Position numbers and translations under genes: made by a program. Below the pieces are notes generated by a model, which searched no databases, was not told where the DNA came from, and was given only the letters and a program-made list of their open reading frames with translations. 64,000 nucleotides of DNA from an uncultured Candidatus Saccharibacteria bacterium (GTDB taxonomy: Bacteria; Patescibacteriota; Minisyncoccia; Minisyncoccales; GWA2-38-27), in NCBI GenBank assembly GCA_964387825.1, contig CAYLWZ010000002.1, positions 47,375-111,374 on the forward strand. The letters are read 5' to 3'. Shown in pieces: positions 6,117-48,787 of this stretch (positions within the stretch are counted from its first letter, which is position 1; every line of letters starts with the position of its first letter).

Positions 6117-6121
6117 ATTAA

Positions 6122-8039: not shown

Positions 8040-8155
8040 AACTTCTTGAAACTTGAAACTTGAAACTTGAAACTTGAGTTATAAGTTGTAAGTTATAAGT
8101 TTCTTTAATCTTTCAACTTTAATCTCTCAACTTTAATCTCTCAACTTTAATCTTT

Positions 8156-8755: not shown

Positions 8756-8796
8756 GTTTTTGAGAATTGAAAATTAAGAATAAAAATTCGTAATTC

Positions 8797-9099: not shown

Positions 9100-9299
9100 A
9101 AATTAAATTAATTTTGAATTTCTAATTTTTAATTTTGATTGAATTTTTAATTATTTAATGACTTAATTTTGAAGTAAGATTCTTTTTTTTTGTTTTTTTG
9201 TTTGTTTGTTTATTATTCAAAATTCTATTATTCATAATTGATTCAAAATTCAAAATAGAACAAGTTCCTCGCAAGCGAGAGCAAAATTCAAAATTTTTA

Positions 9300-10106: not shown

Positions 10107-10224
10107 AAAAACAATGATTTTTCCGCATCTATTTAGAACCGTACGGGCGGGCGACCCACGGGTCTCCCCTACGATTTTTTCAAATAAATATTGCCTATTT
10201 TCAGCGCGATTCGTATTTTGAAAA

Positions 10225-10275
10225 TTGGCTATATCAATCCCGCACATAAATTATGGGCGGGATTGATATAGCCAA
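10225..10275. promoter_or_regulatory. perfect 19-bp inverted repeat (ttggctatatcaatcccgc / gcgggattgatatagccaa) with 13-nt loop, between rplW and rplB
   Basis: read directly from the sequence; loop contains ccgcacataaattatg, which recurs at 58926-58941. Confidence 0.6.
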
Positions 10276-10283
10276 AATTGTTA

Positions 10284-10844: not shown

Positions 10845-10849
10845 ATTCC

Positions 10850-10939
10850 TATAACCTGTAACTTGTAACTTGTAACTTGTAACTTGTAACTTGAGATTTA
10901 AGTTTTGAGTTTTGAGTTATGAGTTCTAAGTTGTAAGTT
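10850..10939. repeat. rplW-rplD spacer: (acttgta)4 versus (aagtt…)n inverted arms
   Basis: read directly from the sequence. Confidence 0.65.
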
Positions 10940-11569
10940 CTAAGATTTAAATGTTTCTTTAATCACCCCTATCGCCTCTTTCGGTATGATTAAATATTTA
11001 TAAGAAAGCGCGTCTAAAACGTTTAGGTCTTTCGCCTGGATTGTGGCAATTCTCGGAATGTTTCTAAGGGCTAAAATTGCATTTTTGTCTATTTCCGGCA
11101 AAGCAATTAACCCAGAACCTTTTTCTAAAAACAATTTATTCAATATTTTTTTTGCTAATTTCGTCTTTGCCTTTTCAAAACTCAAACTATCTATGACCAA
11201 AAGCAGATTATCTTTTGCCTTGGCTGATAAAACCATAAACAAGGCCTTTCTTTTCATTTTCTTGGCAATCTTTTTTTTAAAAACTCTTTCTGCTGTCGGA
11301 CCAAAAGTTACTCCCCCTCCTCTCCAAATAGGAGAACGGTTTGAACCTACCCTCGCTCTTCCGGTGCCTTTTTGCCTCCAGGGCTTTCTTCCTCCTCCTC
11401 TAACTTCGCTTCTGTCTTTCGTTTTAGCGATATTTCTCCTCTGATTCGCCCTTTGCGCCAAAACTACCTGATGAACTAAATCAAGATTCATTTTCACTTC
11501 AAATATCTCTTTCGGCAAATCTATCTTTCCGACCTCTTCTCTATTTTGATTATAAAGTATTGTTTTCAT
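10940..11569 (-). CDS. rplD: 50S ribosomal protein L4
   Basis: uL4 pattern (…VHQVVLAQRANQRRNIAKTKDRSEVRGGGRKPWRQKGTGRAR…); likely start is MKTILYNQ (11569); upstream codons come from a catgaaa tandem repeat. Confidence 0.8.
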   Translation of the reverse strand: MKTILYNQNREEVGKIDLPKEIFEVKMNLDLVHQVVLAQRANQRRNIAKTKDRSEVRGGGRKPWRQKGTGRARVGSNRSPIWRGGGVTFGPTAERVFKKKIAKKMKRKALFMVLSAKAKDNLLLVIDSLSFEKAKTKLAKKILNKLFLEKGSGLIALPEIDKNAILALRNIPRIATIQAKDLNVLDALSYKYLIIPKEAIGVIKETFKS

Positions 11570-11640
11570 GAAACATGAAACATGAAACATGAAACATTTT
11601 TTTAATTTAGGTTTCAAGTTTTACGTTCCAAGTTTTAAAA

Positions 11641-12255
11641 TCATCCTCTAATCTCTAATAGCGTTCCCCTTCTTCCGGGAATAGCCCCTTTTACTGCTAA
11701 TAAATTATTTTCCAGGTCAATTTTTACTATTTTTAAATTTTTCACCGTTACTCTTTCCGTTCCCATTCTGCCGGGCATCCTTCTGCCCTTAATCACTTTC
11801 TGGGGAAACATTGAGCCGATTGAGCCGATTGTTCTTTCCGTATGTTTCGTTCCATGGGTGGCTGTCTGGCCGTGAAATCCCCATCTTTTTACTCCTCCGG
11901 CAAATCCTTTTCCCTTAGAAATACCAGAAATTTTTACTTTCTCCCCTTTATCAAAAATTGAAACATCAATTTTATCTCCCATCTTCATTTTTTGTTCGCT
12001 GTTCGCTGTTCGCTGTTCGTTGACTCTAAACTCTCTTAAATGTTTGTAGGGCTTGTCCCTAAGCGGTTTTTTAATTTTATTTTTCTTATTTATCTCTTCA
12101 AAACCAACCTGAATCGCCTTATAACCGTCTTTTTCCTTCGTCTTAATTTGAACAACATAACAAGGGCCGGCTTCAACCAAAGTCACTGGAATAACATTCC
12201 CTTCTCCGTCAAATATCTGGCTCATTTCTATTTTTTTTCCAAGAATGAATTTCAC
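11641..12255 (-). CDS. rplC: 50S ribosomal protein L3
   Basis: MKFILGKKIEMSQIFDGEGNVIPVTLVEAGPC…GKGFAGGVKRWGFHGQ…THG uL3 signature. Confidence 0.9.
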   Translation of the reverse strand: MKFILGKKIEMSQIFDGEGNVIPVTLVEAGPCYVVQIKTKEKDGYKAIQVGFEEINKKNKIKKPLRDKPYKHLREFRVNEQRTANSEQKMKMGDKIDVSIFDKGEKVKISGISKGKGFAGGVKRWGFHGQTATHGTKHTERTIGSIGSMFPQKVIKGRRMPGRMGTERVTVKNLKIVKIDLENNLLAVKGAIPGRRGTLLEIRG

Positions 12256-12440
12256 CCCATTAGAAGTCTGTCCTTATATAGTCAGTAACTAATTTCAAAC
12301 AGACTTTTATTTTCCAACTATACTCCGTTATTGCTGAGCAGAAAAAATTTTAAAAATTTTTTTCTGCCAAAGACTTCTAACGGGGTTCATACAATACAAT
12401 CCGAATATTCCAAATTCTTATCTGAATACTCCAAACAATG

Positions 12441-12465
12441 AAAAACTGGGCATTGCCCAGTTTTT
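12441..12465. terminator. terminator/attenuator-like hairpin (aaaaactgggc att gcccagttttt) inside the rpsJ-rplC spacer
   Basis: perfect GC-containing stem flanked by A5/T5 on both sides; symmetric, so reads as a U-tailed hairpin on either strand. Confidence 0.5.
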
Positions 12466-12600
12466 CGAGGCAATTTAAATTATTGTATAATTTTTTAAAT
12501 TTTAATAAAATACATAGTTGATCTTATTCGTAGATCCGGATGTTATTCGTCCTAGACCCGTTCGTCCCGAACGGGACGGACTAGGGTTATTCGTCAATTT

Positions 12601-12942
12601 CTATATCTTTACTTCAATATCAACGCCCGCGGGCAAAGTTAAATTTATTAAGGCGTCAATTACATTCTGATTAGGATTTAAAATATCAATCAATCTTTTA
12701 TGAATTCTCATTTCAAACTGCTCCCGGCTGTCTTTATGGACAAAAGATGCTCGATTAACTGTATATTTGTGAATTTCGGTCGGTAAAGGAACTGGTCCCA
12801 CAATTTTAACGCCGTATCTTAAGGCCGTCTCAACAATCTGCCGAGCGCTATTATCAATCACTTTATTGTCATAAGCCTTCAGCTTTATCCTGAGCCTTTG
12901 CTTAAATTCAGTTTCTTCCTTAATTACTTTCTTGGTAGGCAT
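12601..12942 (-). CDS. rpsJ: 30S ribosomal protein S10
   Basis: …[25 protein letters not shown]…GPVPLPT… uS10 signature. Confidence 0.9.
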
Positions 12943-13041
12943 TATTATATTGCTAAGCTGTCCCGCTAAAAGCGGGGCTCGTTTATTATTGCATCGTTGT
13001 TTAATTCAATAATTTAACAATGCAATAATTCAGCAATTACT

Positions 13042-14232
13042 TTATATCTTGACTACTACTCCGGCGCCAACTGTTTTTCCGCCTTCCCTTATTGCAAATC
13101 TCTGTTTCTCTTCAAGAGCGACTGGAGACATTAACTTAACGTTTAAATTGACCGTATCGCCTGGCATAACCATTTCCGTCCCTTCTGGCAAAACTACATC
13201 TCCAGTTACATCAGTAGTCCTAATGTAAAATTGCGGTTTATATCCTTTAAAGAAAGGGGTATGGCGGCCGCCTTCTTCTTTGGTCAAAATATAAATCTCG
13301 CCCTCAAATTCGGTATGAGGCGTAACTGTTCCCGGTTTGGCCAAAACCTGGCCCCTTTCAACTTCTTCTTTTTTTAATCCTCTGAGAAGAATTCCAACAT
13401 TGTCTCCTGCTTTCCCTTCATCAAGTATTTTATTGAACATTTCTATACTCACTGCTACTGTTTTTTTTGTATCTTTTAAACCAATCAACTCTACCTCTTC
13501 ATTAGATTTAATTATTCCTCTTTCAATTCTTCCGGTAGCAACTGTCCCTCGTCCTTCAATAGAAAAAACATCTTCAATTGCCATTAAAAACGGCTTAGCT
13601 GTATCTCTAACAGGTTCTGGTATATACTCGTCTAACGCCTTAACCAGGTCTAAAATCGGCTTAGCTGCTTCGTCATCGCTTGATTTACATCCCAGCGCTT
13701 TTAGGGCAGAACCGCGAATTACCGGAATTTCATCCCCGGGATATTCATACTTTTTTAAAAGTTCTCGAATCTCTGATTCAACCAAATCAATAATTTCCGG
13801 GTCGTCAACCATATCGGTTTTATTAAGAAAAACAACAATTGAGGGAATACCAACCTGGCGGGCAAGCAAAACATGCTCTCTTGTCTGGGGCATAGGGCCG
13901 TCAGGAGCAGAAACCACCAAAATGGCGCCGTCCATCTGAGCGGCTCCGGTAATCATATTTTTAATATAATCGGCATGCCCGGGACAATCTATATGGGCGT
14001 AATGCTTTTTTTCCGATTCATACTCTAAATGAGAAACAGATATCGTAAGACCCCTGTCTCTTTCTTCTGGAGCAGCGTCAATCTGGTCAACGCTTTTTTC
14101 TTTACTGTTAAAACCCTTCAAACTTAAAACATGAAGGATAGCGGCTGTTAAGGTAGTTTTACCATGGTCAACATGGCCAATAGTACCAACATTTATATGA
14201 GGTTTTGTCCTTTCAAATTTTTCTTTAGCCAT
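13042..14232 (-). CDS. tuf: elongation factor Tu
   Basis: [32 protein letters not shown]…DCPGHADY… canonical EF-Tu. Confidence 0.95.
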
Positions 14233-14375
14233 AATTATTAAAAGAATTACGAATAATGAATTACGAATTAAGAATATTATATAATTCCTAATTCTTAATT
14301 CTAAATTCTAAATTCTAATTTATTTATTATTATCTTATTACTTTTTAAAAAAATGTCAATGTTTAGAGCGCGAAA

Positions 14376-16499
14376 TTATCGTCTTTTCCCTTCTATGATT
14401 TCCTGGGCTATATTACGAGGGACTTCTTCATAATAATCAAATTCCATTGTAAATGTTCCTCTTCCTTCTGTCAACGACCTTAATCCAGTGGCATAACCGA
14501 ACATTTCCGCCAAGGGAACGATAGCATTGATAATCTTTAAGTTTAATCTATCTTTCGTCTCCTCAATTCTGCCCCGTCTCGCCGATAAATCACCAATAGT
14601 ATCCCCAAAAAACTCTGAAGGCACAATAACTTCTAACTTCATAATCGGCTCCAATAAAACTGGTTTTGCTCTTTTTGCCGCCGCTTGAAAAGCGATAGAG
14701 CCGGCAATTTTAAAAGCGTTCTCGGAAGAATCAACCTCGTGAAAAGAGCCGTCATATAAAATCGCTTCTAAATCCATCATCGGGTAACCGGCTACAATTC
14801 CTTTATCTATCGCCTCTTTTATTCCTTTCCCCACTGCCGGAATAAATTCTTTGGGAATAACTCCTCCCTTAATTTTATCTATAAAATCAAATCCTTCCCC
14901 TCTGTCTTTTGGCTTAATCCTCAGCCAAACATGACCATACTGCCCGCGGCCTCCTGATTGTCTGATATACTTTCCTTCCGCTTCCGCTTCTTGTTTAATT
15001 GTTTCTTTGTAAGCGACCTGGGGTCTGCCAACCTTGGCGTTAACATTAAACTCACGCTTCATCCTATCCACAATAATCTCAAGATGCAACTCTCCCATAC
15101 CTGAAATAATCGTTTCGCTGGTTTCCAGATCTTCTTTTACTTTAAAGGTCGGGTCTTCTTCTGATAATTTCTTAAGAGCTAAACCCATTTTTTCTTGGTC
15201 GGCTTTTGACTCGGGTTCAATACGAATAGAAATAACCGGTTCTGGAAATATTATATTCTCCAAAACAATGTCCTGACCTTCTTCACAAAGGGTATCTCCG
15301 GTTTTAGTATTCTTTAAACCGACCGTGGCCGTAATATCTCCAGTAAAAACCTCTTTTACTTCTTCTCTTTCGGATGAATGCATTCTCAAAATTCGGCCGA
15401 CTCTTTCTTTTTTATTTGTTGTTGAATTCAAAACATAAGAACCTACTGCCAAAGAGCCTGAGTATACGCGGAAATAAGTTAAAGTCCCCACATATGGATC
15501 GGTCGCCACTTTGAAAGCAAGAGCGGAAAATTTCTCTGAATCGTCGGCTTTTCTTTCAATTTCCTCGCCTGTTTTAGGATACACCCCTTTTACTGGAGGC
15601 AAATCTTGAGGGCTAGGAAGATAATCACAAACGGCGTCAAGCAAAGGTTGAATTCCTTTATTTTTTAAGGCAGAACCGCAAAATACCGGAATTAATTTAT
15701 AACTCAACACAGATTTACGCAAAATACTTTTTAATTCTTCGTTGGAAATTTCCCTATTAGCCAAATATAGGCCTAAAATTTTCTCATCTTCCGCAACAAT
15801 TTTCTCAATCATTTTCTCCCGCCATTCTTTGGCTTCGGCTAATAAATTTTCAGGAATTTCCTCCTCTTTTACTACTTGGCCAAAATCGCCTTCAAATTTC
15901 AGCGCCTTCATCGTAAAAAGGTCAATTACTCCCTGATGGTTATCTTCTTCTCCTATCGGTATTTGAAGAGCAACGGCATTAGGAGAAAGTTTTTCTAAGA
16001 TAGAATCAAAACTCTTTTTAAAAGAAGCGCCTGTTCTGTCCAGTTTGTTTATAAAACAAATTCTGGGCACCTGATATTTGTCCGCCTGACGCCAGACGGT
16101 CTCTGATTGCGGCTCCACTCCGGCTACTCCGTCAAAAATAACCACTGCTCCGTCTAAAACCCTCAGAGACCTTTGAACTTCTGCAGTGAAATCAATATGT
16201 CCCGGGGTGTCAATAATATTTATTCTGTACTCGTTTTCTTTTCCCTGTTTTTCCGCGCCGCTATCTGCGTTTTTCCGCGTCTTCCAAAAACAGGTAGTAG
16301 CGGCTGAAGTAATAGTAATCCCTCTTTCCCTTTCCTGCTCCATCCAATCCATAATTGCCTGGCCATTATGGACTTCACCGATTTTATGGGAAATTCCGGT
16401 GTAAAACAAAACTCGCTCGGTTACAGTTGTTTTACCGGCGTCAATATGGGCAATAATTCCGATATCGCGAATTTTCTCAATTGGATAAATACGAGGCAT
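14376..16499 (-). CDS. fusA: elongation factor G
   Basis: [35 protein letters not shown]…DTPGHIDF… canonical EF-G, 707 aa. Confidence 0.95.
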
Positions 16500-16722
16500 A
16501 AATTTTCAATTAAAAATCCTAAGCGAGGCAATAATTCTTGAAAGTAAACCCAGTTAGAGATTCCGAGGACAAAGAAAAAATAAAGAAACAAGATATCTCT
16601 AACCGGGTAAACTTCGGAGGCAGTTTAGCATGGTTCCCGCTTTTAGCGGGATAAACTGCCGAGAAATTAGGCCCCAAAATCTCGCTGGGATCTTGAGGAT
16701 CGGTAATCCCTAACCGAGCGGC

Positions 16723-17193
16723 TCACCAGGCGAAATGGGCAAAAGCGCGATTTGCTTCGGCCATTCGGTGGGTATCGCTTTTCTTTTTAATCGCCCAACC
16801 TGTATTATTAACGGCGTTCATCAATTCTTCCGCTAATTTTTCTTTCATCGGTTTTCCTTTTTTTTGTTTGGCTCCTTGAATTATCCAGCGCATAGCTAAA
16901 GTTAATTTCCTGCTTCCTTTTACTTCTACCGGAACCTGATAAGTCGCTCCGCCGATTCTTTTTGATTTTACTTCAAGCAAAGGTGAAGTGTTTCTTAAAG
17001 CCGTTTCAAAAACCTCTAACGGCTCTTTCTTCGTCTTTTCTTTAATAATATCAAAAGCGCCATAAACAATCTTTCTGGCTATTGTTTTCTTGCCCCGTCT
17101 CATAATTTGGTTAATAAATTTAGCGACAGTAATGTCGTTATAGACAGAATCGGGGTTAACGGGATATTTTTTTATTTTTTTTCTCCGAGCCAT
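16723..17193 (-). CDS. rpsG: 30S ribosomal protein S7
   Basis: [20 protein letters not shown]…KRAFAHFAW uS7 signature. Confidence 0.9.
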
Positions 17194-17255
17194 TTTTTCT
17201 TGAAACTTAAAACTTGGAACTTAAAACATAATCATTTAAAAAGTTTCAGGTTTTA

Positions 17256-17669
17256 TTACTTCTTTTCTTTCTTTGTTCCGTATTTGCTTCTTCCCTGTTT
17301 TCTATTCTCTACTCCCCCGGCGTCCAAAACGCCTCTTACCACATGGTACCTCACTCCAGGTAAATCTTTAACTCTTCCTCCGCGAATAATCACAACCGAA
17401 TGCTCCTGCAAATTATGCCCTTCTCCGGGAATATAAGCGGTAACCTCCATCCCGTTAGTTAAACGAACCCGAGCCACTTTTCGAAGAGCAGAGTTTGGTT
17501 TCTTGGGAGTAGCGGTAAAAACTTTAAGGCAAACGCCTTTCTTAAAAGACGAAGGATACTTTCTCGGCCTGTTTTTAAGCGAGTTAAAGCCAAAACTTAA
17601 AGCAGGCATATTAGAACGCTTCTTTTTTTTCTTTCTATTCTTTTTTACAAGTTGATGAATTGTAGGCAT
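17256..17669 (-). CDS. rpsL: 30S ribosomal protein S12
   Basis: [10 protein letters not shown]…[59 protein letters not shown] uS12 signature. Confidence 0.9.
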
Positions 17670-17776
17670 AACAAAAGATTTAGGATTTAAGATTTAAGTT
17701 AAAAATTAAAAATAATAATAAAAAGATAGCGATAACCGCTATTTCATAATTTAGCAAAAAGTTTTCAAATTGTCAA

Positions 17777-18406
17777 TTAAACAGGTAAAGAAAAACCGGT
17801 GATTAATGAAAAAATCACATTAATAATAAATATTATCCAAGGAAACAAGAAAAAAATAATAAAAAGTAAAATAATAAAACCAAATTGCTGTAAAAATATT
17901 TTTGTCTTGAGCATAGAAGGAGGCAAAAAAGTAAAAAGAATATGAGAACCGTCTAAAGGAGGGATGGGAAGCAAATTGAAGATTGCTAAAAGAAGATTGA
18001 TATAAACAATATAAGAGAACATCAAAACAAGACCGGAAAAAGAGAACGATAAAGGAAGAAATCTCAGTAACAAACCAAAAAAGACCGCTATGGTTAAATT
18101 CGCCCCGGGACCGGCTAAAGATACTTTTAATTCTCCGTATTTCTGATCTCGGAAATTATAAGGATTAATAGGCACTGGTTTGGCCCAGCCGAAAATAATT
18201 CCTCCACCGGTTAATCTCGCCATAGCAATTAAAAAAATCGGGAGAATAACCGAGCCGACAGGGTCTAAATGTTTAAGGGGGTTCAAAGTAAGACGGCCGG
18301 CGTATTTAGCTGTCGGGTCCCCCAAATAATACGCCATCGCTCCATGAGAAACTTCATGAATAACAACAGAAAAAATCAAAATAATAATCAAAAAAATATA
18401 TTCCAT
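17777..18406 (-). CDS. M50 family (site-2 protease-like) membrane metallopeptidase
   Basis: HEVSHG (HExxH) and NLLPIPPLDG motifs in a multi-TM protein; likely start is MEYIFLII (18406), not the track start 18475. Confidence 0.7.
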   Translation of the reverse strand: MEYIFLIIILIFSVVIHEVSHGAMAYYLGDPTAKYAGRLTLNPLKHLDPVGSVILPIFLIAMARLTGGGIIFGWAKPVPINPYNFRDQKYGELKVSLAGPGANLTIAVFFGLLLRFLPLSFSFSGLVLMFSYIVYINLLLAIFNLLPIPPLDGSHILFTFLPPSMLKTKIFLQQFGFIILLFIIFFLFPWIIFIINVIFSLITGFSLPV

Positions 18407-18617
18407 ATTATTAGTGTAACAAAAAATTTTACAAAAGTAAAAATTTCTGATAAGATAACTTAAACGAATTTTCAATTATCAATTTTCAAATTTTCAATCA
18501 AATCCCAATTTTCAAATTTTCAAACTTTTTAAAAATCGTACTTTTCTATTGTTATTTAATAATTGAATCATTGAAAATTTATTGAAAATTGGTTATTGAA
18601 AATTGAAAATTAATTTT

Positions 18618-19223: not shown

Positions 19224-20306
19224 TTAAAGCCCTAAGGCCGTTACTATTTGCTTAATCAAAGAAACCACTACCGGAGGAGGCATTAAACTGTAAGAAGAAA
19301 CTCCTTCGTCGTCTAAAACCTGCCAGGGTTTTTTGATAATCTTTACTTTATTGGTTTCTTTATCTAATTGATAATTATACTCCGGGGTAATTTCATAATC
19401 CTCAACAAATTCTTTTGCTTTTTCTATTGGCACAGAGTTCCTTAAAAGAACTTTTGGAATACCATAAAGAGAAAAAGCCTGCTCTATCAATTCTTCGTCT
19501 GTTTTTAATCTGTTTTTTATCGGCTCTATCCCAAACTCATCTCCTTCTTTTTGGACCATCCTCGCTCCTCGGCCTGTCTGCGCAGACGGGCAATCAGGGT
19601 TGTCGCATAATAAATAAAATTTATCTTCTTTTTTATCATATCCGGTTTTTTTTGTCGGAAAAAGCTTCAAACTCCTTGATGTCTGACAAAGAGGGCAAAC
19701 CACTCTGTATTTTATCCTCTCGTCAATAACTGACTCAGGGACGTCAATTAAAACAAAAATATCAGGATCGTTCCGATAATTAATCAAATCCCGAAAGAAA
19801 AGGGAATAAGAAATTTGGTCTAAATCCCGAGGGAAACCATCAATAAAAAGGGCTTTTCTGCCCTTTTTCGCTATCTCTCTTTTCGCCAAAACCAAAATTA
19901 ATTCAGAAGGCAAAAGAATTTTTGTGCTTCTTTTTTCCAAAAAGCTGATTATTTTATCCAGGGATAAAAATCCCCGATAATTTTTCCTTAAAAAGTCAAT
20001 CAGCTCTTTTCTCTTATTCTTATCTACTATTGTCTTGTCAAATTCGCGAACCATATCCCCTATTGAAAAATGTTCTATCCTGTCCTTATCAACCACTTCT
20101 TTAAATATTTTAGCGTAAGTTCCTTTGCCAGAATTTTTTTTGCCTAAAAAATAAGCGATAAAAGTATTTTTCTGCAAATACTCTCTTAATTTTTTTATCT
20201 CTTTTCCCGTTTTTAACTCAAAATATGCCTGTCTGTCTTTAGGGTCTGTTAAATCAAAATCCCTTGAGCTACCATCTAATTTTGTTTTAAAAAGAGGAAA
20301 AGCCAT
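19224..20306 (-). CDS. adenylate kinase-like nucleoside-monophosphate kinase with N- and C-terminal extensions
   Basis: P-loop FLGKKNSGKGTYAKIF (cf. GxPGxGKGT), NMP-binding HFSIGDMVRE (cf. ISTGDMLRA), LID IDGFPRD…CPLC…CDNPDC zinc motif; 360 aa versus ~215 for canonical Adk. Confidence 0.6.
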   Translation of the reverse strand: MAFPLFKTKLDGSSRDFDLTDPKDRQAYFELKTGKEIKKLREYLQKNTFIAYFLGKKNSGKGTYAKIFKEVVDKDRIEHFSIGDMVREFDKTIVDKNKRKELIDFLRKNYRGFLSLDKIISFLEKRSTKILLPSELILVLAKREIAKKGRKALFIDGFPRDLDQISYSLFFRDLINYRNDPDIFVLIDVPESVIDERIKYRVVCPLCQTSRSLKLFPTKKTGYDKKEDKFYLLCDNPDCPSAQTGRGARMVQKEGDEFGIEPIKNRLKTDEELIEQAFSLYGIPKVLLRNSVPIEKAKEFVEDYEITPEYNYQLDKETNKVKIIKKPWQVLDDEGVSSYSLMPPPVVVSLIKQIVTALGL

Positions 20307-21257: not shown

Positions 21258-21361
21258 ATGAACTACCTCGCCCCAAAAGGGCGAGGTGTCCCTCCGGGCG
21301 AGTTCTTTCGGTAGATGTATCCTCGCCGCGGAGCGGCGAGGTATTTATGTTCCGAAATAAA
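21258..21361. repeat. 104-bp double-hairpin 'CCTCGCC' repeat element, copy 1 (intergenic)
   Basis: ~90% identical to 63210-63314; hairpins cctcgcccc-aaaa-gggcgagg and cctcgccgc-gga-gcggcgagg. Confidence 0.8.
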
Positions 21362-24228: not shown

Positions 24229-24852
24229 TCATTTTGGAAGATATTTTCTGTACTCCTTAATGATAAACCGCCATTTACGGCGAGACCAATAAGGGCCGGC
24301 GTAATCAATGCCAATTCTTCCGGTTGTTAAAACTTGAGAATCTTTTGTCTCTTCGCCCCGATTCTCCAACCAAATTTTCTTACTTTTAGTCAAATCTTCC
24401 CCGTAAAAAGATTTATCTAATTTTAAATAACGGCAGACCTTTCCCGGTCCGTTGGCAAGGGACAGTCCCTTGACTGTCCCTTGACTGTCCCTCAACTCCG
24501 GCTTGATTGCGCGGATAAGGACGCACTCCGGCTCTCCGGCGCCGGCAGTGGTAATATTCAATTGCCAGTACATTCCGTAAACCAAATAAATATAAATATG
24601 GCCGCCAATTAAATATTCAACCTTGTTCCGAGGAGTTATCCTTCCTTTGTAAGAATGAGCTGCCTTGTCTTGAGGCCCGACGTATGCCTCGGTCTCTATG
24701 ATTTTGCCTGCTATTTTCTCGGTAACAATTTTTTTTACCCCGTTAGAAATCAAAGATTTTCTAACGGGGCGAACAATATATTTTCCTAAAAGTTCTTTGG
24801 CTATTTTTAAAGTCGGCTGAGTATAAAAATTTCTAGATAATTTTTTTCTCAT
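24229..24852 (-). CDS. mpg: DNA-3-methyladenine glycosylase (Mpg/AAG family)
   Basis: …IIETEAYVGPQDKAAHSYKGRITPRN…YIYLVYGMYWQLNIT… Mpg family pattern. Confidence 0.75.
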   Translation of the reverse strand: MRKKLSRNFYTQPTLKIAKELLGKYIVRPVRKSLISNGVKKIVTEKIAGKIIETEAYVGPQDKAAHSYKGRITPRNKVEYLIGGHIYIYLVYGMYWQLNITTAGAGEPECVLIRAIKPELRDSQGTVKGLSLANGPGKVCRYLKLDKSFYGEDLTKSKKIWLENRGEETKDSQVLTTGRIGIDYAGPYWSRRKWRFIIKEYRKYLPK

Positions 24853-29147: not shown

Positions 29148-29214
29148 AATTTAATTTGTTTAATTTATTTTTTGCCGATCCTATTTTAAATATTCGAAAT
29201 TCAAAATTTGGCTA

Positions 29215-29350
29215 TTCATATCTCAAAGCATCAACCGGATTCATCTTAGCGGCGCCTCTGGCAGGCAGACCCGCCTGTATCGTTATGCGAAGCATTGCGG
29301 GCAGGTATCCGGAAATACAGCCTATCAAGAACGAGAAAACCAGACCAAAT
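29215..29350 (-). pseudogene. degenerate duplicate of the 3' end of the MacB-type permease gene (cf. 30406-30470), interrupted by one GC-rich 36-bp element
   Basis: translation …CISGYLPA[MLRITIQAGLPA]RGAAKMNPVDALRYE* versus permease C-terminus …VGCVSGYLPARSAAKFNPAEALRYE*. Confidence 0.75.
29271..29305. repeat. GC-rich 36-bp 'PARNA' element, single copy
   Basis: ccgcctgtatcgttatgcgaagcattgcgggcagg; same family as 36187-36258, 36517-36588 and 47586-47624. Confidence 0.8.
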
Positions 29351-29986
29351 TTACAGGCTTAAACTAAATTTTACTAATTCTTTTTTTATAATTTTTTCGT
29401 CAATCTTAAACCTCTTTTTATAAATAATTTTTTCTGAATAATCAATATCTTTAAAATAAACAAGCTGGCTACGGAACATTTTTTCATTGAATTCATCTCC
29501 AAAAATCTCTCTTGCTTTTTTCGCTATTTTCCCCAAAGAATAATAATTCTTCATGATAAAATATAAATCAACATAGTCCTTCCATTTGGGTCTTCTACCC
29601 AGAACGTAAGCCTTCATCGCCGATAATGTCAGTAAATTCGGCAATTTTATAAAATTATCAAATTTTTCGGAAAAATTAATTTTGAACGGAAAATTAAAAA
29701 AAGTAAATCCTACGCTATTTATTAATAAAGTAAATTGTCCTTCTTCGTCGCGAATTACGCGCTCAATTTTTTTTAATCCTGTTATTTTTTCGCGAATATA
29801 ATAATTATTGAATTCTTTGTTTGTAAATAAATCAAAATCAATTGACTCCCGGTGACCGATATAAAGCGCAATCGCGGTCCCACCAACCAAACCAAAATTT
29901 TTCTTAAATAATTCAATTAAAGGCAATAATTCAATCTGTTCTTTAGTTAAAATTTCTTTATGCATACTGTTTGAAATATAGATCAA
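29351..29986 (-). CDS. nucleotidyltransferase, AbiEii/AbiGii-type toxin family
   Basis: GGTAIALYIGHRESIDFDLF motif characteristic of the AbiEii nucleotidyltransferase fold. Confidence 0.65.
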   Translation of the reverse strand: MIYISNSMHKEILTKEQIELLPLIELFKKNFGLVGGTAIALYIGHRESIDFDLFTNKEFNNYYIREKITGLKKIERVIRDEEGQFTLLINSVGFTFFNFPFKINFSEKFDNFIKLPNLLTLSAMKAYVLGRRPKWKDYVDLYFIMKNYYSLGKIAKKAREIFGDEFNEKMFRSQLVYFKDIDYSEKIIYKKRFKIDEKIIKKELVKFSLSL

Positions 29987-30405: not shown

Positions 30406-31680
30406 TCATTCATATCTCAAGGCCTCGGCCGGATTAAATTTGGCGGCGCTTCTGGCAGGCAGATATCCGGAGACACAACCGACTAAAAATGAGAAAGTCA
30501 GGCCAAAAAGAATAAGCTGGGGAGTAATTGACGCTTCTAAGAAAAAAATGGGATGTATTTGAAAATAAATTTCCACTGCCTTAGCCAATCCCAGTCCTAA
30601 AATTGTTCCTCCTATTCCTCCAAACAAGCCAAAGATGCCTGATTCAACCAAAAAAATCGCGACAATGCTTCTATTTCTCGCGCCAACCGCTTTCATAATT
30701 CCAATTTCCCGAATTCTCTCCCGTACTGAAGTATACATCGTATTCATTATCCCTATCCCCCCAACCACAATGGCTATTGAGGCGAAACCAATCACTATTA
30801 ATTGCACTAAGCCCATTATGCTTCCCACTATGTCGCCCATTTTTTCGCTGCTAAGTACGGCGTAAGACGGAAGGTCTCCTTCCCCTCTTCTCCTTTTTCT
30901 GCTTTCTTCAAGTTTTTCTTTTATATTTTCTGTTACCTCATCCGCTGAATATCCGGATTCAATCTTAGCCATAACAACTTTAGCCCCTGTCCGCTCTCCT
31001 GTAATCTGGCGGAAAATATCTAAATCCAGATAAACCTGGGAATCGTCTTGCTTGCTTCCCAGAGATTTTAATATTCCTGTAACTTCAAAATTCCTGCCTC
31101 TGAGATTAATCTGAGCGCCTATTCTCATTCCTCGAAAAATTTCTTCAGGGACCAAACTTCCAATACAAATTTCCCTCTTCCCGGAAACAGGCCAGCGTCC
31201 CTGTTTCAAGTCCCACCCCATATCAGATTTCAAGACCTTTAATGTTTCTTCCCAAGGAACTCCTGTAACTAAAACTGTTTTCTTTTCGCCTGCATATCTG
31301 ATTGCTTCTCCTCTGTATGTCATGGGAACGACAACGCTTACTCCTTCTGTTTTTTTTATTGCCTCAATATCGTCTTCAGACAACTCCATTCCACCGGCCA
31401 TAGCTGTTGTTATGTCGGTAATATCTCCAGGCATAACAATAATTATATCTTTTCCCATCATTCTCAGCTGCTGCAAAACCGCTTTCTCTATGCCCTGGCT
31501 CAAAGAAAGCAATGACATAATCAAAAAAATACCGATAACAACGCCTATCATAGTCAACCAGCTCCTAATTTGCCTTGTCCTCAAATTTCTTATGGCGATT
31601 TTAATATATTCCTTAAACATTAGATTTAAGTTGTAAGTTGAAAGATTAAAAATATCAACCGATTTCCTTAAATTTAGCAA
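30406..31680 (-). CDS. ABC transporter permease, MacB/FtsX-like
   Basis: N-terminal TM, large periplasmic domain, C-terminal FtsX-type 3-TM bundle; adjacent ABC ATPase and adaptor. Confidence 0.8.
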   Translation of the reverse strand: MLNLRKSVDIFNLSTYNLNLMFKEYIKIAIRNLRTRQIRSWLTMIGVVIGIFLIMSLLSLSQGIEKAVLQQLRMMGKDIIIVMPGDITDITTAMAGGMELSEDDIEAIKKTEGVSVVVPMTYRGEAIRYAGEKKTVLVTGVPWEETLKVLKSDMGWDLKQGRWPVSGKREICIGSLVPEEIFRGMRIGAQINLRGRNFEVTGILKSLGSKQDDSQVYLDLDIFRQITGERTGAKVVMAKIESGYSADEVTENIKEKLEESRKRRRGEGDLPSYAVLSSEKMGDIVGSIMGLVQLIVIGFASIAIVVGGIGIMNTMYTSVRERIREIGIMKAVGARNRSIVAIFLVESGIFGLFGGIGGTILGLGLAKAVEIYFQIHPIFFLEASITPQLILFGLTFSFLVGCVSGYLPARSAAKFNPAEALRYE

Positions 31681-31702
31681 CTCTAATCTTTGGTCTTTAA
31701 TC

Positions 31703-32419
31703 TTATTTCTCCCATAGAATCTTTTCTGCCTGAAAATGGTTATGGATTATTTGTCCATCCTTAATATGAACTACTTGCTTGCTATAACCGGCTATATTCG
31801 GGTCATGAGTAACAACAATAATCGTCTTTTTTTCTTTTTTATGAAGATCGGTCAAAATCTCCATAATTAATTTTCCGGTGGTAGAATCCAAATTACCTGT
31901 CGGCTCGTCAGCAACGATAATTTCCGGGTCATTAGCCAAAGCCCGGGCAATTGCTATTCTTTGTTTTTCTCCTCCGGAAAGTTCGCCCGGCCTATGATGA
32001 ATCCTGTTCTCCAGATTTACAGAGGCAAGAAGTTTTTTTGCTCTTTCTCTTCTTTTTGTATCTTTAGCTCCTTGAAAAATCATAGGAAGCATCACATTTT
32101 CTAAGGCGTTAAGGTTAGGCAGCAAATTAAACTGCTGGAAAACAAAACCTATCTTTCTGCCTCTAATTAAAGCCAGCTGATTTTCGGAAAGGCGAGAAAT
32201 GTCCTTGCCTCCTAAGAAAATTTTTCCTTTAGTCGGTACGTCCAAGCAGCCAACAATATACATAAGAGTTGACTTGCCGGAACCAGACGCCCCCATTATA
32301 GCCACAAAAGATCCGGATAGAATTTCTAAGTTTATCCCTTTCAGAACAGTAAGTTCTAATTTCCCTAATTGATAAGTTTTCCAAATATCCTCAAGTTTTA
32401 TTATAGGAAGATTATCCAT
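31703..32419 (-). CDS. ABC transporter ATP-binding protein (MacB/LolD-type)
   Basis: GASGSGKST Walker A, LSGGEKQR signature, [11 protein letters not shown] Walker B. Confidence 0.85.
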
Positions 32420-32496
32420 TTTTTATTAAAGTTTATTAAATCTAAACCAAGCTCCGGCAAAAGAATAGGAAGTAGGATATAACGGAAAGGATATCC

Positions 32497-34005
32497 TTAT
32501 AATACTTTTTCTCCTTCTTCAAGGCCGGAAGTAATCTCAACAAAGTCTTCGCCTTCCAGCCCTGTTTCTATTTCCCGGGGTTTGACTTCGCCATTTTCAT
32601 AAACTCGGACTATTTTTTGCCCGCTCGTCTTTTCTATCAATTCCTTAGGAACGCGCAAAACATTATCTTTTTCAGCGGTTTTTATAATAATGTCGGCCGT
32701 CATACCGGGCTTGATGCCTTCTTTTATTTTCAGAAAATCAATAATCACCTTATAATAAACTACTCCTTCAATTAATTTTTCTGCGGGGTCAATTGAAATG
32801 ACTTTTCCCTCAAAGGCTTGGCCGGGGAAAGGAGTTAAATCAATATTTACCGGATCTCCAATTTTTATTTTAACAATATCTTCCTCGTAAATATTAACTT
32901 CTACTTGAAAAGGAGCAGCCGGAAGAAAAGAAATCACAGAATCGGCCGGTTGAGCCATTTCTCCTTCCCTTTTATTAATATCTGTTATTTGGCCATTTTC
33001 AGGAGCTTTCAAAACTGCTTGGGTAATCTTATTTTCTAAAAGTTTAATTTTGGCCTCGCCTTGCTTTATCTGCGCCCGATATAATCCTTCTCCTTGCAAT
33101 TTATTCTCAAGAGAAGAAATTTCAGCTTGAGCATTATTGATATTCGTTTTATTGGTAATCTTGACCGTTGAAATGTCTTGTTGGGCGTTAACAATATCGG
33201 CAGTAACGTTATTTATATTCGTTCTCTGGGTATCTAAAGACGTCTTATCAGCGCTTGAAACAAGAGCGCGATAAGCTTCACTTTTTGTATCGTCTCGAAT
33301 TACTTCCAAAGAATTGCTTACTGCCTCTAATTGCTCCTTTACTTTAAGAAGAACTGAATCAATATTTTCTTCTTGGGAATTATTTTTAGCGTCGTTAACA
33401 TAGGTTTTAATTCTTTCCAAATCACTTTTGATATTATATTTTTCATTTACCACTTCCGTTGATTTTTCATCAAAAGAAGTAAAATAATCGCGCTGGATTT
33501 TATAAACCACATTATAAGCGTTATATGTTTTTAAGTAAGAATCATCTAAAACAGTAAGAGCGTCGTCATAAGCGTTATCCATGTCTTCGTCCGCTTTAGA
33601 TTTAGCGTCTTCCAAGCTCTGTTCCGCATTTTGGAGAGAAACATCGGCATCCGTATTCTTTGCTTTTGCAACTTCTGAATCGGCTTTTGCTTCATCTAAC
33701 TCAATGTAAAGCTGAGTTGTGTCAAGTTTGGCCAAGAATTGTCCTGTTTCCACATTATCGCCGATATTAACATACATTTCTTTAATTCTTCCTGAATTCT
33801 TAAAACTGAGGTCTCTTTTTTCCGAAACCTTAACCGAACCTGTTTCGGAAACCTCCTGAGTAATCGCGCCCCTGACTACTTTTTGGAAAACAAAATTTGG
33901 CTCTTTGTTCTTAAATAAAAACCAATAAACGCCAAAACTCAAAAGAGCCGTGATTATAATGATGACTGAAATTATTTTTTTGCTCTTCCCGTTAAAAATT
34001 TTCAT
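32497..34005 (-). CDS. efflux periplasmic adaptor (HlyD/MacA-like membrane fusion protein) with long coiled coil
   Basis: N-terminal TM anchor, extended coiled-coil middle, C-terminal beta-barrel motifs. Confidence 0.7.
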   Translation of the reverse strand: MKIFNGKSKKIISVIIIITALLSFGVYWFLFKNKEPNFVFQKVVRGAITQEVSETGSVKVSEKRDLSFKNSGRIKEMYVNIGDNVETGQFLAKLDTTQLYIELDEAKADSEVAKAKNTDADVSLQNAEQSLEDAKSKADEDMDNAYDDALTVLDDSYLKTYNAYNVVYKIQRDYFTSFDEKSTEVVNEKYNIKSDLERIKTYVNDAKNNSQEENIDSVLLKVKEQLEAVSNSLEVIRDDTKSEAYRALVSSADKTSLDTQRTNINNVTADIVNAQQDISTVKITNKTNINNAQAEISSLENKLQGEGLYRAQIKQGEAKIKLLENKITQAVLKAPENGQITDINKREGEMAQPADSVISFLPAAPFQVEVNIYEEDIVKIKIGDPVNIDLTPFPGQAFEGKVISIDPAEKLIEGVVYYKVIIDFLKIKEGIKPGMTADIIIKTAEKDNVLRVPKELIEKTSGQKIVRVYENGEVKPREIETGLEGEDFVEITSGLEEGEKVL

Positions 34006-35592: not shown

Positions 35593-36147
35593 TTATAATC
35601 CTAATCCATCAGAAATTTTTTGCATCGCACTTAAAGTAATCTCAATAAATTTTTCTAAAGACAGACCTAATAAATTTTCAGATTTTTTTATTATTTCCCT
35701 ATTAGCCCCTCTGGCAAACGCTTTTTCCTTAAAACGCCTTAAAACATTTTCCGTTTTTAAATCGTTTATTTTTTTAGAAGGCAGAACAAGAGTAGCGGCT
35801 ACTATTAAACCGGTTAAAGGGTCAACGCAATATAGCGCCTTTGCCATTTTTGTTTCCGGTTCAATGTTATGAATTTCATTATGAGACAAAACCGCATTAC
35901 ATATCTCTTCGTCAAATCCTAATTTTTTCAACATTTCGGCCCCTACCCTAGAATGCAGTTTGGGATCGCCTTCTACTTTTTCATAATCAATATCGTGCAA
36001 TAAACCGGCAATCCCCCATTTATTTTTGTCTTCATCAAAATATTCGGCAAAATCCCTCATTGCTGCTTCTACGGCTAAACAATGTTTAATGAGATTTTTA
36101 TTTTTAATATTTTCTTTTAATAAATTTAATGCTTCTTCTCTTTTCAT
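35593..36147 (-). CDS. HD-domain phosphohydrolase
   Basis: HCLAVEAAMRDFA … LLHDIDY HD motif. Confidence 0.65.
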   Translation of the reverse strand: MKREEALNLLKENIKNKNLIKHCLAVEAAMRDFAEYFDEDKNKWGIAGLLHDIDYEKVEGDPKLHSRVGAEMLKKLGFDEEICNAVLSHNEIHNIEPETKMAKALYCVDPLTGLIVAATLVLPSKKINDLKTENVLRRFKEKAFARGANREIIKKSENLLGLSLEKFIEITLSAMQKISDGLGL

Positions 36148-36737
36148 TTTATTTTAAATAAAAGCCATTGTTTTCCCCGGCCTTTCCCGCCTGCAACGCT
36201 TTGCGTAGCATTGCGGGCAGGCCCGCCTGCAACGCTTTGCGTAGCATTGCGGGCAGGCATTTTAACTAAGCAATAATTTCCTTTTAATTTTTTACCTTTT
36301 AATCCAAAAATAATCTTATCCTTTGTTTTCTCAACTAATTCGTATTTTCCTTTGTCATAAATCTTGACAATGCCTGCTCCATAATTTCCTTTGGGTATTT
36401 TTCCTTCAAAATTAATATAGCCGATTGGGTGGTCTTCAGTTTGAATCGCCAGATGTTTCACTCCCTTCTTTCCCGGCACTCCTTTCGGCACCGCCCAAGA
36501 TTTTAAAACTCCATCCCCGCCTGCATCGCTATGCGAAGCATTGCGGGCAGGCCCGCCTGCATCGCTATGCGAAGCATTGCGGGCAGGCATTTCTAACCTG
36601 AAATCAAAATGATGCCCCGCTTTCTCAGCAAAATGTTCTTGAACCACAAACCTATTTTCTGAAGTTCTCAAAACCTTACCTTTTGGCTCGGGAGTTTTAT
36701 CAAACTTTCTTTTCTCCCAATATTTTTTTAAGCTCAT
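36144..36737 (-). CDS. LigD-type 3'-phosphoesterase (PE) domain protein carrying two in-frame 2x12-aa repeat insertions
   Basis: KRKFDKTPEP…FVVQEHFAEKAGHHFDFRLE…DGVLKSWAVPKGVP…EDHP…FEG…G matches the LigD PE domain; inserts PARNASHSDAGG x2 and PARNATQSVAGG x2. Confidence 0.65.
   Translation of the reverse strand: MSLKKYWEKRKFDKTPEPKGKVLRTSENRFVVQEHFAEKAGHHFDFRLEMPARNASHSDAGGPARNASHSDAGGDGVLKSWAVPKGVPGKKGVKHLAIQTEDHPIGYINFEGKIPKGNYGAGIVKIYDKGKYELVEKTKDKIIFGLKGKKLKGNYCLVKMPARNATQSVAGGPARNATQSVAGGKGRGKQWLLFKIK
36187..36258. repeat. 2x tandem GC-rich 36-bp element (ccgcctgcaacgctttgcgtagcattgcgggcaggc), in-frame in LigD-PE gene
   Basis: perfect tandem; ~60% GC in a ~33% GC genome; encodes PARNATQSVAGG x2. 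Confidence 0.9.
36517..36588. repeat. 2x tandem GC-rich 36-bp element variant (ccgcctgcatcgctatgcgaagcattgcgggcaggc), in-frame in LigD-PE gene
   Basis: perfect tandem; encodes PARNASHSDAGG x2. Confidence 0.9.
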
Positions 36738-47068: not shown

Positions 47069-48787
47069 TTAGGTCAATTTCTCTTCAATCTCTTCCGGTA
47101 AGAAAGGTCTAGCGTTGTATTTTAATATTTTCTTATCAACTTTAATACCGTAACAATTTAAGACCTTTTCCATTTGTCCCAAGCCGTTTGTTTCTATTAA
47201 GACAAGTTTTTTAACTCCTTTTAACGCGTTTTTCATCTGTTTTTCCGGAAATGGTTCAATAATAATCGGCTGGACCATTCTCATCCCTAACTTCTCCGCC
47301 ACCTCTTTTGCTGGTCCTTTCGTTGAACCCCAAACAATAAGCGCTTTTTTAGCTGTTTTCTTCCCGTAAACCTTAACCGCTTCTAATCTATCAACCTCTT
47401 TTCTCATTTCCTCAAATTTTCTTAGCCGCTTATTTTGCATTTCTTCTACCTTTTTTCCTTCTTCCACTGTAATTCCGAACTCGTCATGTTCATAACTGTT
47501 TGCTTTGACAATTGCATTTTTCTCCCCCGGAAAAGCAAGAGGAGAAATTCCATTTCTTGTTTTTTTGTATCTCAAATATTCACCCCCGCCTGCATTGGCT
47601 ATACCAAAGGCATTGCGGGCAGGCTTTTTGTTCCAAAGCAAAGGTTCTTCACGTTTAATTTTCTCTAAAATATTTTTATTAAAACTAAAGGTACTTTCGG
47701 AAACTTCCTTATCAAGTAATAAAATTGACGGTGTTTGGTACTTCCAAGAAAGATTTAAAATTTCTCCGGCCCAATAACAAGCCTCGTCAGCATCGCCGGG
47801 AGCGATAACAAACCTTACAATATCGCCATGCCCGGCTCCTAAAACAAAAAGTAAATCTCCCTGGCCAGTATAAGTAGGTACTCCGCTAGCAGGAGACATT
47901 CTTTGGCTTTCTACTATTACCAAAGGAGTTTCATTCTGGGCAGCCAAACTAAACCCTTCTACCATTAAAGCAAATCCTCCTCCCGAAGTTCCAACTATTG
48001 TCCTTGCTCCGGCATATGACGCCCCGATAGCCGCGTTCACCACCCCTGTCTCGTTTTCCAGTTGGGCAACGGCTATATTAAAATCTTTTTTGCGCTTGGC
48101 TAAATAATGCAAAATCCCGCTGGCCGGGGTCATCGGATAAGCAATGTAAAGATCTAAACCAGCTTTAACAGCGCCCAAAGCAACCGCTTCGTTCCCGGTT
48201 AAAAGAAGAAACTGCTTTTTCCCGCTTTTGTTCCCGCTAAAACGGACATTTAGCGGGACAATTTTAAATAAATTAGGGCTATCTTCAAAAGCGGCTTTCG
48301 CTACTTTTATATTTATTTCTTGAAATTTTTTAAATTCTTTTTTTAAAACCTCTTCTAATGTTTTCCAGTCAAAACCGATAATTTTTGCAAAAGCGGAAAC
48401 AAGAGCGATGTTCTCCATTATCGGCTTGCCGCCCACCTTTTCAACGATTGTTTTTATCGCCACCCCAATTCCTTTTCTTTTTCTAAAAGAAATCTCATCG
48501 CTATTGTAAATAATTATTCCTTTTTTGTCTAAATCGCTTTCGTGTTTTTTGATGGTGATTGCGTCCAGGGCTAAAAGAAAATCTATTTTTTCCCGATGAG
48601 ATAAAACTTCTTTTTCCGACGCCCTAATTTGAGAAAAATCATGGCCCCCTCTAATCAAGGATTGATAATCATCGTAAATAAAAATTCTATAACCAATCTG
48701 GGAAAATAATTTGGCAATTATAAGACCGGCTTTCTTGGAACCGCGGCCGGCGGCGCCTCCTATTAAAATTGAATAATCCTTAGCCAT
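47069..48787 (-). CDS. porGA: 2-oxoacid:ferredoxin oxidoreductase fused gamma-alpha subunit
   Basis: N-terminal gamma-like MAKDYSILIGGAAGRGSKKAG… then alpha-subunit domains; carries one PARNA element (47586-47624). Confidence 0.75.
   Translation of the reverse strand: MAKDYSILIGGAAGRGSKKAGLIIAKLFSQIGYRIFIYDDYQSLIRGGHDFSQIRASEKEVLSHREKIDFLLALDAITIKKHESDLDKKGIIIYNSDEISFRKRKGIGVAIKTIVEKVGGKPIMENIALVSAFAKIIGFDWKTLEEVLKKEFKKFQEINIKVAKAAFEDSPNLFKIVPLNVRFSGNKSGKKQFLLLTGNEAVALGAVKAGLDLYIAYPMTPASGILHYLAKRKKDFNIAVAQLENETGVVNAAIGASYAGARTIVGTSGGGFALMVEGFSLAAQNETPLVIVESQRMSPASGVPTYTGQGDLLFVLGAGHGDIVRFVIAPGDADEACYWAGEILNLSWKYQTPSILLLDKEVSESTFSFNKNILEKIKREEPLLWNKKPARNAFGIANAGGGEYLRYKKTRNGISPLAFPGEKNAIVKANSYEHDEFGITVEEGKKVEEMQNKRLRKFEEMRKEVDRLEAVKVYGKKTAKKALIVWGSTKGPAKEVAEKLGMRMVQPIIIEPFPEKQMKNALKGVKKLVLIETNGLGQMEKVLNCYGIKVDKKILKYNARPFLPEEIEEKLT
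47586..47624. repeat. GC-rich PARNA element, in-frame in POR alpha (encodes PARNAFGIANAGGG)
   Basis: ccgcctgcattggctataccaaaggcattgcgggcaggc shares both end motifs with the 36-bp family. Confidence 0.7.

Follow-up and report, generated by a model that had tools for sequence, protein, structure and literature searches.

In a 64,000-nt stretch of contig CAYLWZ010000002.1 from an uncultured Candidatus Saccharibacteria bacterium (hereafter the window), an open reading frame (ORF) predicted to encode a stand-alone LigD 3'-phosphoesterase (LigD-PE) is interrupted at two sites by perfect tandem dimers of a GC-rich 36-bp unit. Because near-identical copies of this unit lie in unrelated genes of distant microbes and phages, we regard it as a small, widely shared selfish element and not as part of the gene. 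The 36/39-bp unit is probably a non-autonomous palindromic mobile element akin to repetitive extragenic palindromes (REPs) and Rickettsia palindromic elements (RPEs), and it is very likely selfish and tolerated in proteins as a translated loop. Different genomes share the inserted DNA, constraint acts on its hairpin, and its genic copies preserve the reading frame and sit in loops.

The LigD-PE ORF (197 aa) matched the Pfam family LigD_N (PF13298) with E = 5e-32, measures about 149 aa when its four inserted units are subtracted, and retains an intact catalytic H-x-H/D-x-R block (GHHFDFRLE). Tandem Repeats Finder (TRF) recovered both tandems inside this ORF, each as 36 bp x 2.0 with 100% match. 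Two unit variants, each duplicated, are read in frame as 12-aa peptides at the two sites (Table 1), as a first-pass annotation of this DNA had proposed. Profile search of the window detected exactly six units, all in the same DNA orientation: the four in LigD-PE and the two single copies already annotated, one in the alpha subunit of a 2-oxoacid:ferredoxin oxidoreductase (POR-alpha) and one in a permease remnant. The gapped pattern CCGCCTGC..GCGGGCAGG gave 5 exact matches in the window compared to 0 in 100 shuffles. The unit had been described as about 60% GC in a genome of about 33% GC; direct counting yielded 67% for the unit and approximately 35-36% for the window. The frame that had been called consistent in intact genes is not identical at all four sites, because the permease-remnant copy is read in a different frame (LPAMLRITIQAG). 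Excision of 36 bp from the remnant restores ..SGY joined directly to LPARGAAKMNPVDALRYE.

Ortholog alignments agreed with the annotated lineage specificity of the inserts. Most LigD-PE homologs are 145-150 aa long and lack both inserts, and at the two insertion sites their sequences run uninterrupted from RLEM into (E/D)GVLKSW and from ...IK(F/M) into K... The structures PDB 3p4h and 3p43 align to LigD-PE in two separate stretches, covering residues 1-50 and 75-160 of the query and leaving the site 1 insert unaligned, and residues 50 and 51 of the 3p43 chain, which flank this insert, are adjacent. POR-alpha orthologs with 76-80% identity (552 aa) read from LLWDKK straight into GKYLRYK, the 13-aa insert being absent. 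A decayed 10-aa insert occupies the same position as the window insert in one POR-alpha ortholog (P0134), a decayed element copy is present at LigD site 2 in ortholog P0003, and in the syntenic relative L125 the decayed copy at this site holds a nested 24-bp palindrome. Since the identical 197-aa LigD-PE, both dimers included, was found on contigs from four separate Joint Genome Institute (JGI) metagenome samples, the tandems are not the assembly artefact against which the first-pass annotation had cautioned.

Structural mapping was based on a model of the insert-free ortholog P0007, with a predicted local distance difference test (pLDDT) score of 94.5. In this model site 1 corresponds to a two-residue beta-turn between strands 43-52 and 55-61, and site 2 to the loop 138-143 that connects the final pair of beta-strands; both LigD sites are thus predicted to be beta-hairpin turns or loops. 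An AlphaFold model of the 197-aa window ORF, built from a 24-sequence alignment, reached a pLDDT of 40 and was not used.

To delimit the family, a species-representative genome collection was searched with the pattern CCGCCTGY-N12-24-CATTGCGGGCAGG. The matches listed, which set a lower bound on the whole, comprise more than 119 genome stretches, and the search beyond the window bore out the notion of a mobile repeat by locating unit DNA in unrelated genes of unrelated genomes. According to record titles, the hosts among these matches include Patescibacteria (Nomura-, Giovannoni-, Staskawicz-, Magasanik-, Falkow-, Moran-, Davies-, Levy-, Roizman-, Shapiro- and Berkelbacteria, and Saccharibacteria), members of the Planctomycetes-Verrucomicrobia-Chlamydiae (PVC) group (Verrucomicrobia, Kiritimatiellia and Lentisphaerae, on contigs of 54-60% GC), two Deltaproteobacteria-type metagenome-assembled genomes (MAGs), one of them a 5-Mb chromosome, and one Woesearchaeota MAG. 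The two commonest 36-mers, occurring 17 and 16 times among the matches listed, are base-for-base identical in genomes of the Candidate Phyla Radiation (CPR) and of PVC bacteria alike. Six pattern matches without the leading C and without a hairpin were set aside as chance (L005, L042, L044, L054, L074 and L100).

The element was also present in 14 stretches of phage contigs from IMG/VR, with up to 5 copies per contig, mostly in short ORFs or between genes. The Deltaproteobacteria-labelled chromosome CP070673 (L112) contains exactly the variant found in the phage contigs. No match to the commonest 36-mer turned up in PLSDB or INPHARED, which hold cultured plasmids and phages, and a concatenated-peptide query against a set of 5.8 billion proteins gave 26 candidates and 2 matches, the word index being ill-suited to 12-aa inserts. 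In phage contig L127 the copies lie at 509-543, 4251-4285 and 4500-4534, the first being inverted and lying 3.7 kb upstream of the other two, which are direct and separated by 249 bp; the related phage contigs L131 and L133 have the identical layout and L128 shares it in part. On contigs of this type, two of the three copies are embedded in repeated CTCTGTG/CACAGAG-rich flanks.

Folded as DNA and as RNA, the unit forms a hairpin, in agreement with its description as a palindromic element. It consists of a 4-nt unpaired tail, 5'-CCTG (coding strand in the window; complement CAGG), and an interrupted 12-13-bp GC-rich hairpin with the layout CCCGC-AA-TGC-T-(variable 4-5 bp stem)-ATA loop-...-GCA-G-GCGGG, in which CCCGC pairs with GCGGG and TGC with GCA before the apical 4-5-bp stem closes the ATA loop. 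The folding energy of the 36-nt unit is -12.5 kcal/mol for DNA (z = -3.65) and -19.8 kcal/mol for RNA, z-scores of units relative to shuffled controls range from -3 to -6, and the dimer reaches approximately -47 kcal/mol. The invariant part is entirely Watson-Crick paired in all of 34 distinct 36-mers and of 18 distinct 39-mers, and 91-95% of cells are paired across variants. Moreover, the apical stem covaries: pair 16:26 is UA, AU or GC, and the 39-mers contain three pairs of this kind. The observed covariation score was not attained by any of 500 shuffles, and slid registers collapsed. A pairing register starting at 1:36 was dropped for a C-A mismatch, the tail-plus-hairpin register being Watson-Crick throughout the invariant part. 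The LigD peptides differ in S..D versus T..V because the two unit variants differ by one compensatory pair; amino-acid differences here follow nucleic-acid structure, not the reverse.

The CCTG tail is present in all copies, and GTAG was found only within the variable stem of one variant. As terminal inverted repeats, CCTGCCCGCAATGC and the reverse complement of GCATGGCAGGCGGG match at 11 of 14 positions, and the termini are common to all size classes (36, 39, 63, 69 and approximately 100 bp). The ~100-bp forms combine the termini CCTGCCCGCAATGCC...ATGCATGGCAGGCGGG with a partly conserved AT-rich interior (..TTGATTTATAA..) and occur in tandem between genes, beside other GC-rich palindromes. 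Searches of the window and of the ~100-bp forms yielded no Rfam family at gathering or E-value thresholds, the only matches being chance miRNA-like hairpins.

A length divisible by three (36, 39, 42 or 45 bp) was observed in 104 of 129 copies (81%). ORFs of at least 150 aa span 70 of 101 such copies compared to 1 of 20 copies of other lengths (Fisher p = 6e-8), which places 71 of 121 copies in these long ORFs. The sense frame reading P-A-R-N-A-x-x-S-x-A-G-G (PARNAxxSxAGG; hereafter the PARNA frame) is used by 49 of these 71. Of their six frames, the 36-bp forms have four or five open, and stops are more numerous in the 39-bp forms; the element is also read in other frames and is also found between genes. 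Among the products of host genes are a class-I (I/L/M/V-type) tRNA synthetase, SecA, GyrA, FtsK, RecG (twice), UvrC, a CCA-adding-type enzyme and an integrase, and the flanks of the copies are often Lys/Glu-rich linkers. The lengths divisible by three and the frame pattern in long ORFs argue for ribosomal read-through of the units and against their removal. The inserts would most likely be translated as surface loops of a still functional enzyme.

Target-site duplications were detected neither as direct repeats at the four window sites nor in flank profiles, and the flanks hold no target motif, the strongest signal being an A at position -1 (56% at low-GC loci, 48% at high-GC loci). A 9-bp direct repeat around phage copies, TCTGTGTCC, was rejected as a target-site duplication, being part of a larger repeated flank. 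A scan of metagenome contigs for head-to-tail junctions returned 52 loci, at which tandem arrays of 2-4 units were common, both in ORFs and between genes. L143, L146, L155 and L189 represent one locus in different metagenome samples and differ in unit number (2-4), which argues that tandem copy number changes quickly. Nested insertions, of which the decayed copy in L125 is an instance, map to the apical loop or its immediate neighbourhood (...CG^CATAG...) and involve at least five different inserted palindromes, among them an inverted member of the 36-bp family; the apices of hairpin loops seem to be favoured as targets. One nested form is a composite 69-bp unit made of the 36-bp element with a 33-bp palindrome in its loop, observed in L143, L146, L151, L155, L160, L166, L173, L187 and L189, which represent this one locus in different metagenomes. 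Composite and plain 36-bp units are arranged there as 69+36, 69+36+36, 69+69+36 and 69+69+36+36, in effect a coding sequence with a variable-number tandem repeat. Tandem arrays of 38-bp units, whose length is not divisible by three, adjoin apparent tRNA gene ends recognised by eye (L172 ~250-410; L188 ~370-470).

The element thus enters DNA without target-site duplication or a fixed target sequence, and genic copies survive only where the frame is kept, at 36, 39, 42 or 45 bp. In the commonest reading it adds a hydrophilic 12-13-aa loop bounded by Pro...Gly-Gly and placed in turns or linkers. Two different variants entered the two beta-hairpin loops of LigD-PE, and each was then presumably duplicated in place through slippage or unequal exchange between hairpin-forming repeats. 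A trans-acting enzyme recognising the tailed hairpin as single-stranded DNA may move the element, by analogy with the HUH-type REP-associated tyrosine transposases (RAYTs) that mobilise REPs and with IS200/IS605 systems; such an enzyme would fit the tail-plus-hairpin form, the absent duplication and the targeting of loop apices. Movement by an HUH-type route in particular is a tentative and rather unlikely proposition, drawn from this analogy. Horizontal transfer, with phages carrying copies, would distribute the element between lineages. The length divisible by three, the few stop codons in 36-bp forms and the Pro...Gly-Gly loop in the preferred frame also led us to consider a 'stealth' mini-transposon, itself selected for harmless translation, exchanged among CPR and PVC bacteria, Deltaproteobacteria-type MAGs, DPANN archaea and phages, and moved by an undescribed loop-targeting enzyme; this could be so, and we put it forward with some doubt.

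Several points weigh against a translated mobile element of this kind. No mobilising gene was found: an IS608 TnpA query, which would miss distant RAYTs, had no match among the 4254 ORF segments in 1.33 Mb (window plus 191 loci), and inspection by eye revealed no transposase-like ORF near the arrays of L152 and L171 or, in phage locus L130, between copies that are inverted relative to each other. No filled and empty pair of near-identical genomes was recovered, and recent transposition, like translation of the inserts, is what we infer. The invariance of the termini is partly fixed by the search pattern (ascertainment bias), and several host assignments ('Gammaproteobacteria' and 'Bdellovibrionales' third-party-annotation (TPA) MAGs) are record labels only. 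Furthermore, LigD site 1 is occupied in other orthologs by a different GC-rich palindrome of 30 bp, at the same codon boundary after RLEM, which random insertion does not explain. That the 36-bp and 30-bp elements share this site suggests either a hotspot or that related elements have replaced one another. The 30-bp element (CCCGCCTCCGCTAAAGCTTCGGCGGGTAAA; for example L124 3545-3604, in ortholog P0002) has a CCCGCC/GGCGGG stem, encodes PASAKASAGK and folds as DNA weakly better than shuffled sequence (z = -1.3); it is present in 1, 2 or 3 tandem units in orthologs P0002, P0004, P0005, P0006, P0008-P0010, P0035 and P0040.

Other origins of the unit were weighed against these observations. It could be a minimal MITE (miniature inverted-repeat transposable element), moved by the DDE transposase of an unseen parent insertion sequence (IS) acting on the 14-bp imperfect terminal inverted repeats. 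The imperfect inverted termini common to the 36, 39, 63 and ~100-bp forms look as if only the ends were recognised, yet the missing target-site duplications, the lack, in the 1.33 Mb, of any longer element whose ends of this kind enclose a gene, and an internal stem whose covariation a purely end-recognising system would not require make this explanation unlikely. Strong sequence conservation and hairpin covariation would equally be expected of an RNA or DNA hairpin that is useful to the host, bound by a conserved factor acting in mRNA stability, pausing or recombination and kept by selection, and the intergenic phage-contig copies beside repeated flanking motifs are in keeping with such a role. 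However, the copies share no context, lying in unrelated genes and at unrelated places within them, are absent from most orthologs, exist in decayed versions and belong to no Rfam family; we therefore consider a host function improbable.

Strongly folding GC-rich inserts in AT-rich coding sequence, with dimers near -47 kcal/mol, also resemble the GC-rich 'byp' inserts of Magnusiomyces mitochondria, and the units might accordingly be cut from the mRNA or bypassed by ribosomes, remaining untranslated. Neither removal nor bypass needs an open frame or a length divisible by three, a length that 81% of copies nevertheless have, and it is these that lie inside long ORFs; in addition, take-off and landing codons do not match at the window inserts (ATG...GAT, ATG...AAA and AAA...GGT), so that this possibility is very improbable. 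Misassembly can yield perfect tandem copies, and a native repeat might have arisen in place in the LigD-PE gene. An artefact or local origin is nevertheless hardly credible given the identical protein in four independent metagenome assemblies, identical DNA in hundreds of unrelated contexts from many studies, and a frame and length bias that is biological. A clustered regularly interspaced short palindromic repeat (CRISPR) was rejected, as the units are directly adjacent or solitary, with no unique spacers of similar length.

The preferred reading, a tolerated palindromic mobile element, has its closest precedent in intragenic REPs. GTAG- and CGTC-tagged REPs, including intragenic copies, were catalogued by Di Nocera et al. 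2013 (PMC3733652). More than half of the intragenic cases are dimers encoding 20-30 aa, some ORFs have two insertions, and the host genes often function in DNA replication, synthesis or repair; most cases come from the verrucomicrobium Opitutus terrae (GTAG-17/18/19) and from Rickettsia conorii (RPE-4 and RPE-6), and CGTC REPs, too, lack a cognate RAYT (PMC3733652). Common to both systems are tailed GC-rich hairpins of 20-40 bp placed in frame inside ORFs, dimers, and repair genes as hosts. In contrast, the tail is CCTG/CAGG here and GTAG or CGTC there, so that the unit carries neither tag; the peptides are PARNA..AGG here and VGPALAAG and others there; and head-to-tail tandem dimers, found here, were reported to be rare or absent there (PMC3733652). 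REPs in general are mostly extragenic, and their families are reported as specific to a species or genus, whereas 71 of 121 copies of the present element are in long ORFs and copies are identical across phyla.

The likeness to Rickettsia palindromic elements drawn in the first-pass annotation is upheld by insertion in frame, intact genes and retained catalytic motifs of LigD-PE. With RPE-1 and its relatives the unit shares a palindromic repeat lying in frame in intact genes and tolerated as an extra surface segment. RPE-1 measures approximately 100-150 bp and is confined to Rickettsia (Ogata/Claverie); the present element, with 36-39 bp, a sequence of its own and hosts among CPR and PVC bacteria, Deltaproteobacteria-type MAGs, one Woesearchaeota MAG and phages, is set apart by size and host range. 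Beyond what had been noticed initially are the occurrence in several phyla and in phages, the 36, 39 and ~100-bp forms with shared termini, the use of other frames and the intergenic copies.

REPIN/RAYT and IS200/IS605 systems resemble the element in the hairpin with a short tail, the lack of duplication, the compensatory changes and the likely single-strand recognition. REPINs are inverted REP pairs, in contrast to the single or tandem units described here, and IS200/IS605 elements insert beside a fixed 4-5-nt target, unlike the present copies with no conserved flank. Mitochondrial GC clusters, double-hairpin elements and 'byp' elements are likewise short GC-rich palindromes in AT-rich genomes, including coding regions, and may be nested or in tandem. 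They belong to organelles of yeasts and fungi, and the ribosome-bypassed byps need not have lengths divisible by three. The present element differs from byps in that length and frame indicate read-through translation and flanking codons differ. A literature search that included exact DNA and peptide strings returned no description of the 36-bp family or of such elements in CPR bacteria. In-frame palindromic repeats, and intragenic REP dimers in repair genes, are thus a known kind of element; unusual in the 36-bp family are the breadth of its distribution, its frame-neutral design and the nesting at loop apices.

Small palindromic repeats are usually seen as lineage-private and mostly intergenic passengers. 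In contrast, a 36-39-nt sequence is shared here across phyla and phages, mainly in essential genes and presumably as translated loops, with a length and frame that seem to reflect selection acting on the element itself. It offers a ready marker for tracing DNA recently exchanged between ultrasmall uncultured bacteria and the organisms around them, is a recurrent cause of loop insertions and of varying copy number in proteins, and calls for caution in annotating and aligning CPR proteins. It also provides a defined substrate for seeking the enzyme that moves tailed hairpins, a question shared with the Rickettsia RPEs and the CGTC-type REPs.

Table 1. Positions of the units, their host genes and other features in the window, and of ~100-bp forms in their own loci.
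Feature	Position	Strand	Description
LigD-PE ORF	36144-36737	-	host of both tandems
LigD tandem, site 1	36516-36588
LigD tandem, site 2	36186-36258
LigD site 1 units	36552-36587 and 36516-36551	-	nhmmer E = 9.5e-13 for each unit; minus-strand sequence CCTGCCCGCAATGCTTCGCATAGCGATGCAGGCGGG; aa 51-74 = PARNASHSDAGG x2, flanked by RLEM and DGVLKSW
LigD site 2 units	36222-36257 and 36186-36221	-	unit sequence CCTGCCCGCAATGCTACGCAAAGCGTTGCAGGCGGG; aa 161-184 = PARNATQSVAGG x2, flanked by LVKM and KGRGKQW
POR-alpha unit	47585-47623	-	single, 39 bp, CCTGCCCGCAATGCCTTTGGTATAGCCAATGCAGGCGGG, encodes PARNAFGIANAGG
POR-alpha ORF	47069-48787	-	2-oxoacid:ferredoxin oxidoreductase alpha subunit
Permease-remnant unit	29270-29305	-	single, 36 bp, one C>T change
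Permease remnant	29212-29328	-	38 aa, FtsX/MacB-type permease C-terminus
AbiEii-type nucleotidyltransferase toxin gene	29351-29986		Pfam E = 1.7e-11
Permease remnant with toxin gene	29212-29986
Transporter region	30406-34005
MacB-like permease	30406-31680		intact
Other GC-rich islands	21269-21341, 19556-19592, 24516-24555, 6013-6043		short, hairpin-forming
Heptamer-rich region	100-18600		ribosomal-protein/EF-Tu/EF-G/SecY region
Heptamer repeat examples	4312-4400, 4595-4738, 3789-3854, 10852-10948
~100-bp form, L150	914-1113
~100-bp form, L152	~1760-2060	-
~100-bp forms, L140, L148, L162, L171, L191

The closest named relatives of the POR-alpha protein are from Wolfebacteria, Parcubacteria and Patescibacteria. 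At residues ~181-190 it has an extra segment of ~8 aa (..RFSGNKSG..) that is absent in 13 of 13 aligned orthologs and is not a GC-rich element. The 38-aa permease remnant carries what we take to be the C-terminal motif of FtsX-family permeases, as read from the sequence. It is abutted by the AbiEii-type toxin gene, just upstream of which lie the intact MacB-like permease, one intervening ORF and a membrane-fusion protein. The remnant and the nearby intact permease suggest a rearranged or duplicated transporter end.

The gene content of the window is bacterial and includes EF-G, EF-Tu, SecY and MnmA; together with the relatives of POR-alpha it most likely marks the genome as one of the CPR/Patescibacteria. 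The other short GC-rich islands listed in Table 1 are outside the 36-bp family and may be terminators or other small palindromic elements. Tandem heptamer repeats fill many intergenic spacers of the ribosomal-protein/EF-Tu/EF-G/SecY region. The first two examples in Table 1 are inverted blocks, (CTTATAA)n...(TTATAAG)n and (AGAATTA)5...(TTCTTAA)4.6, which would form long AT-rich hairpins with heptad periodicity.

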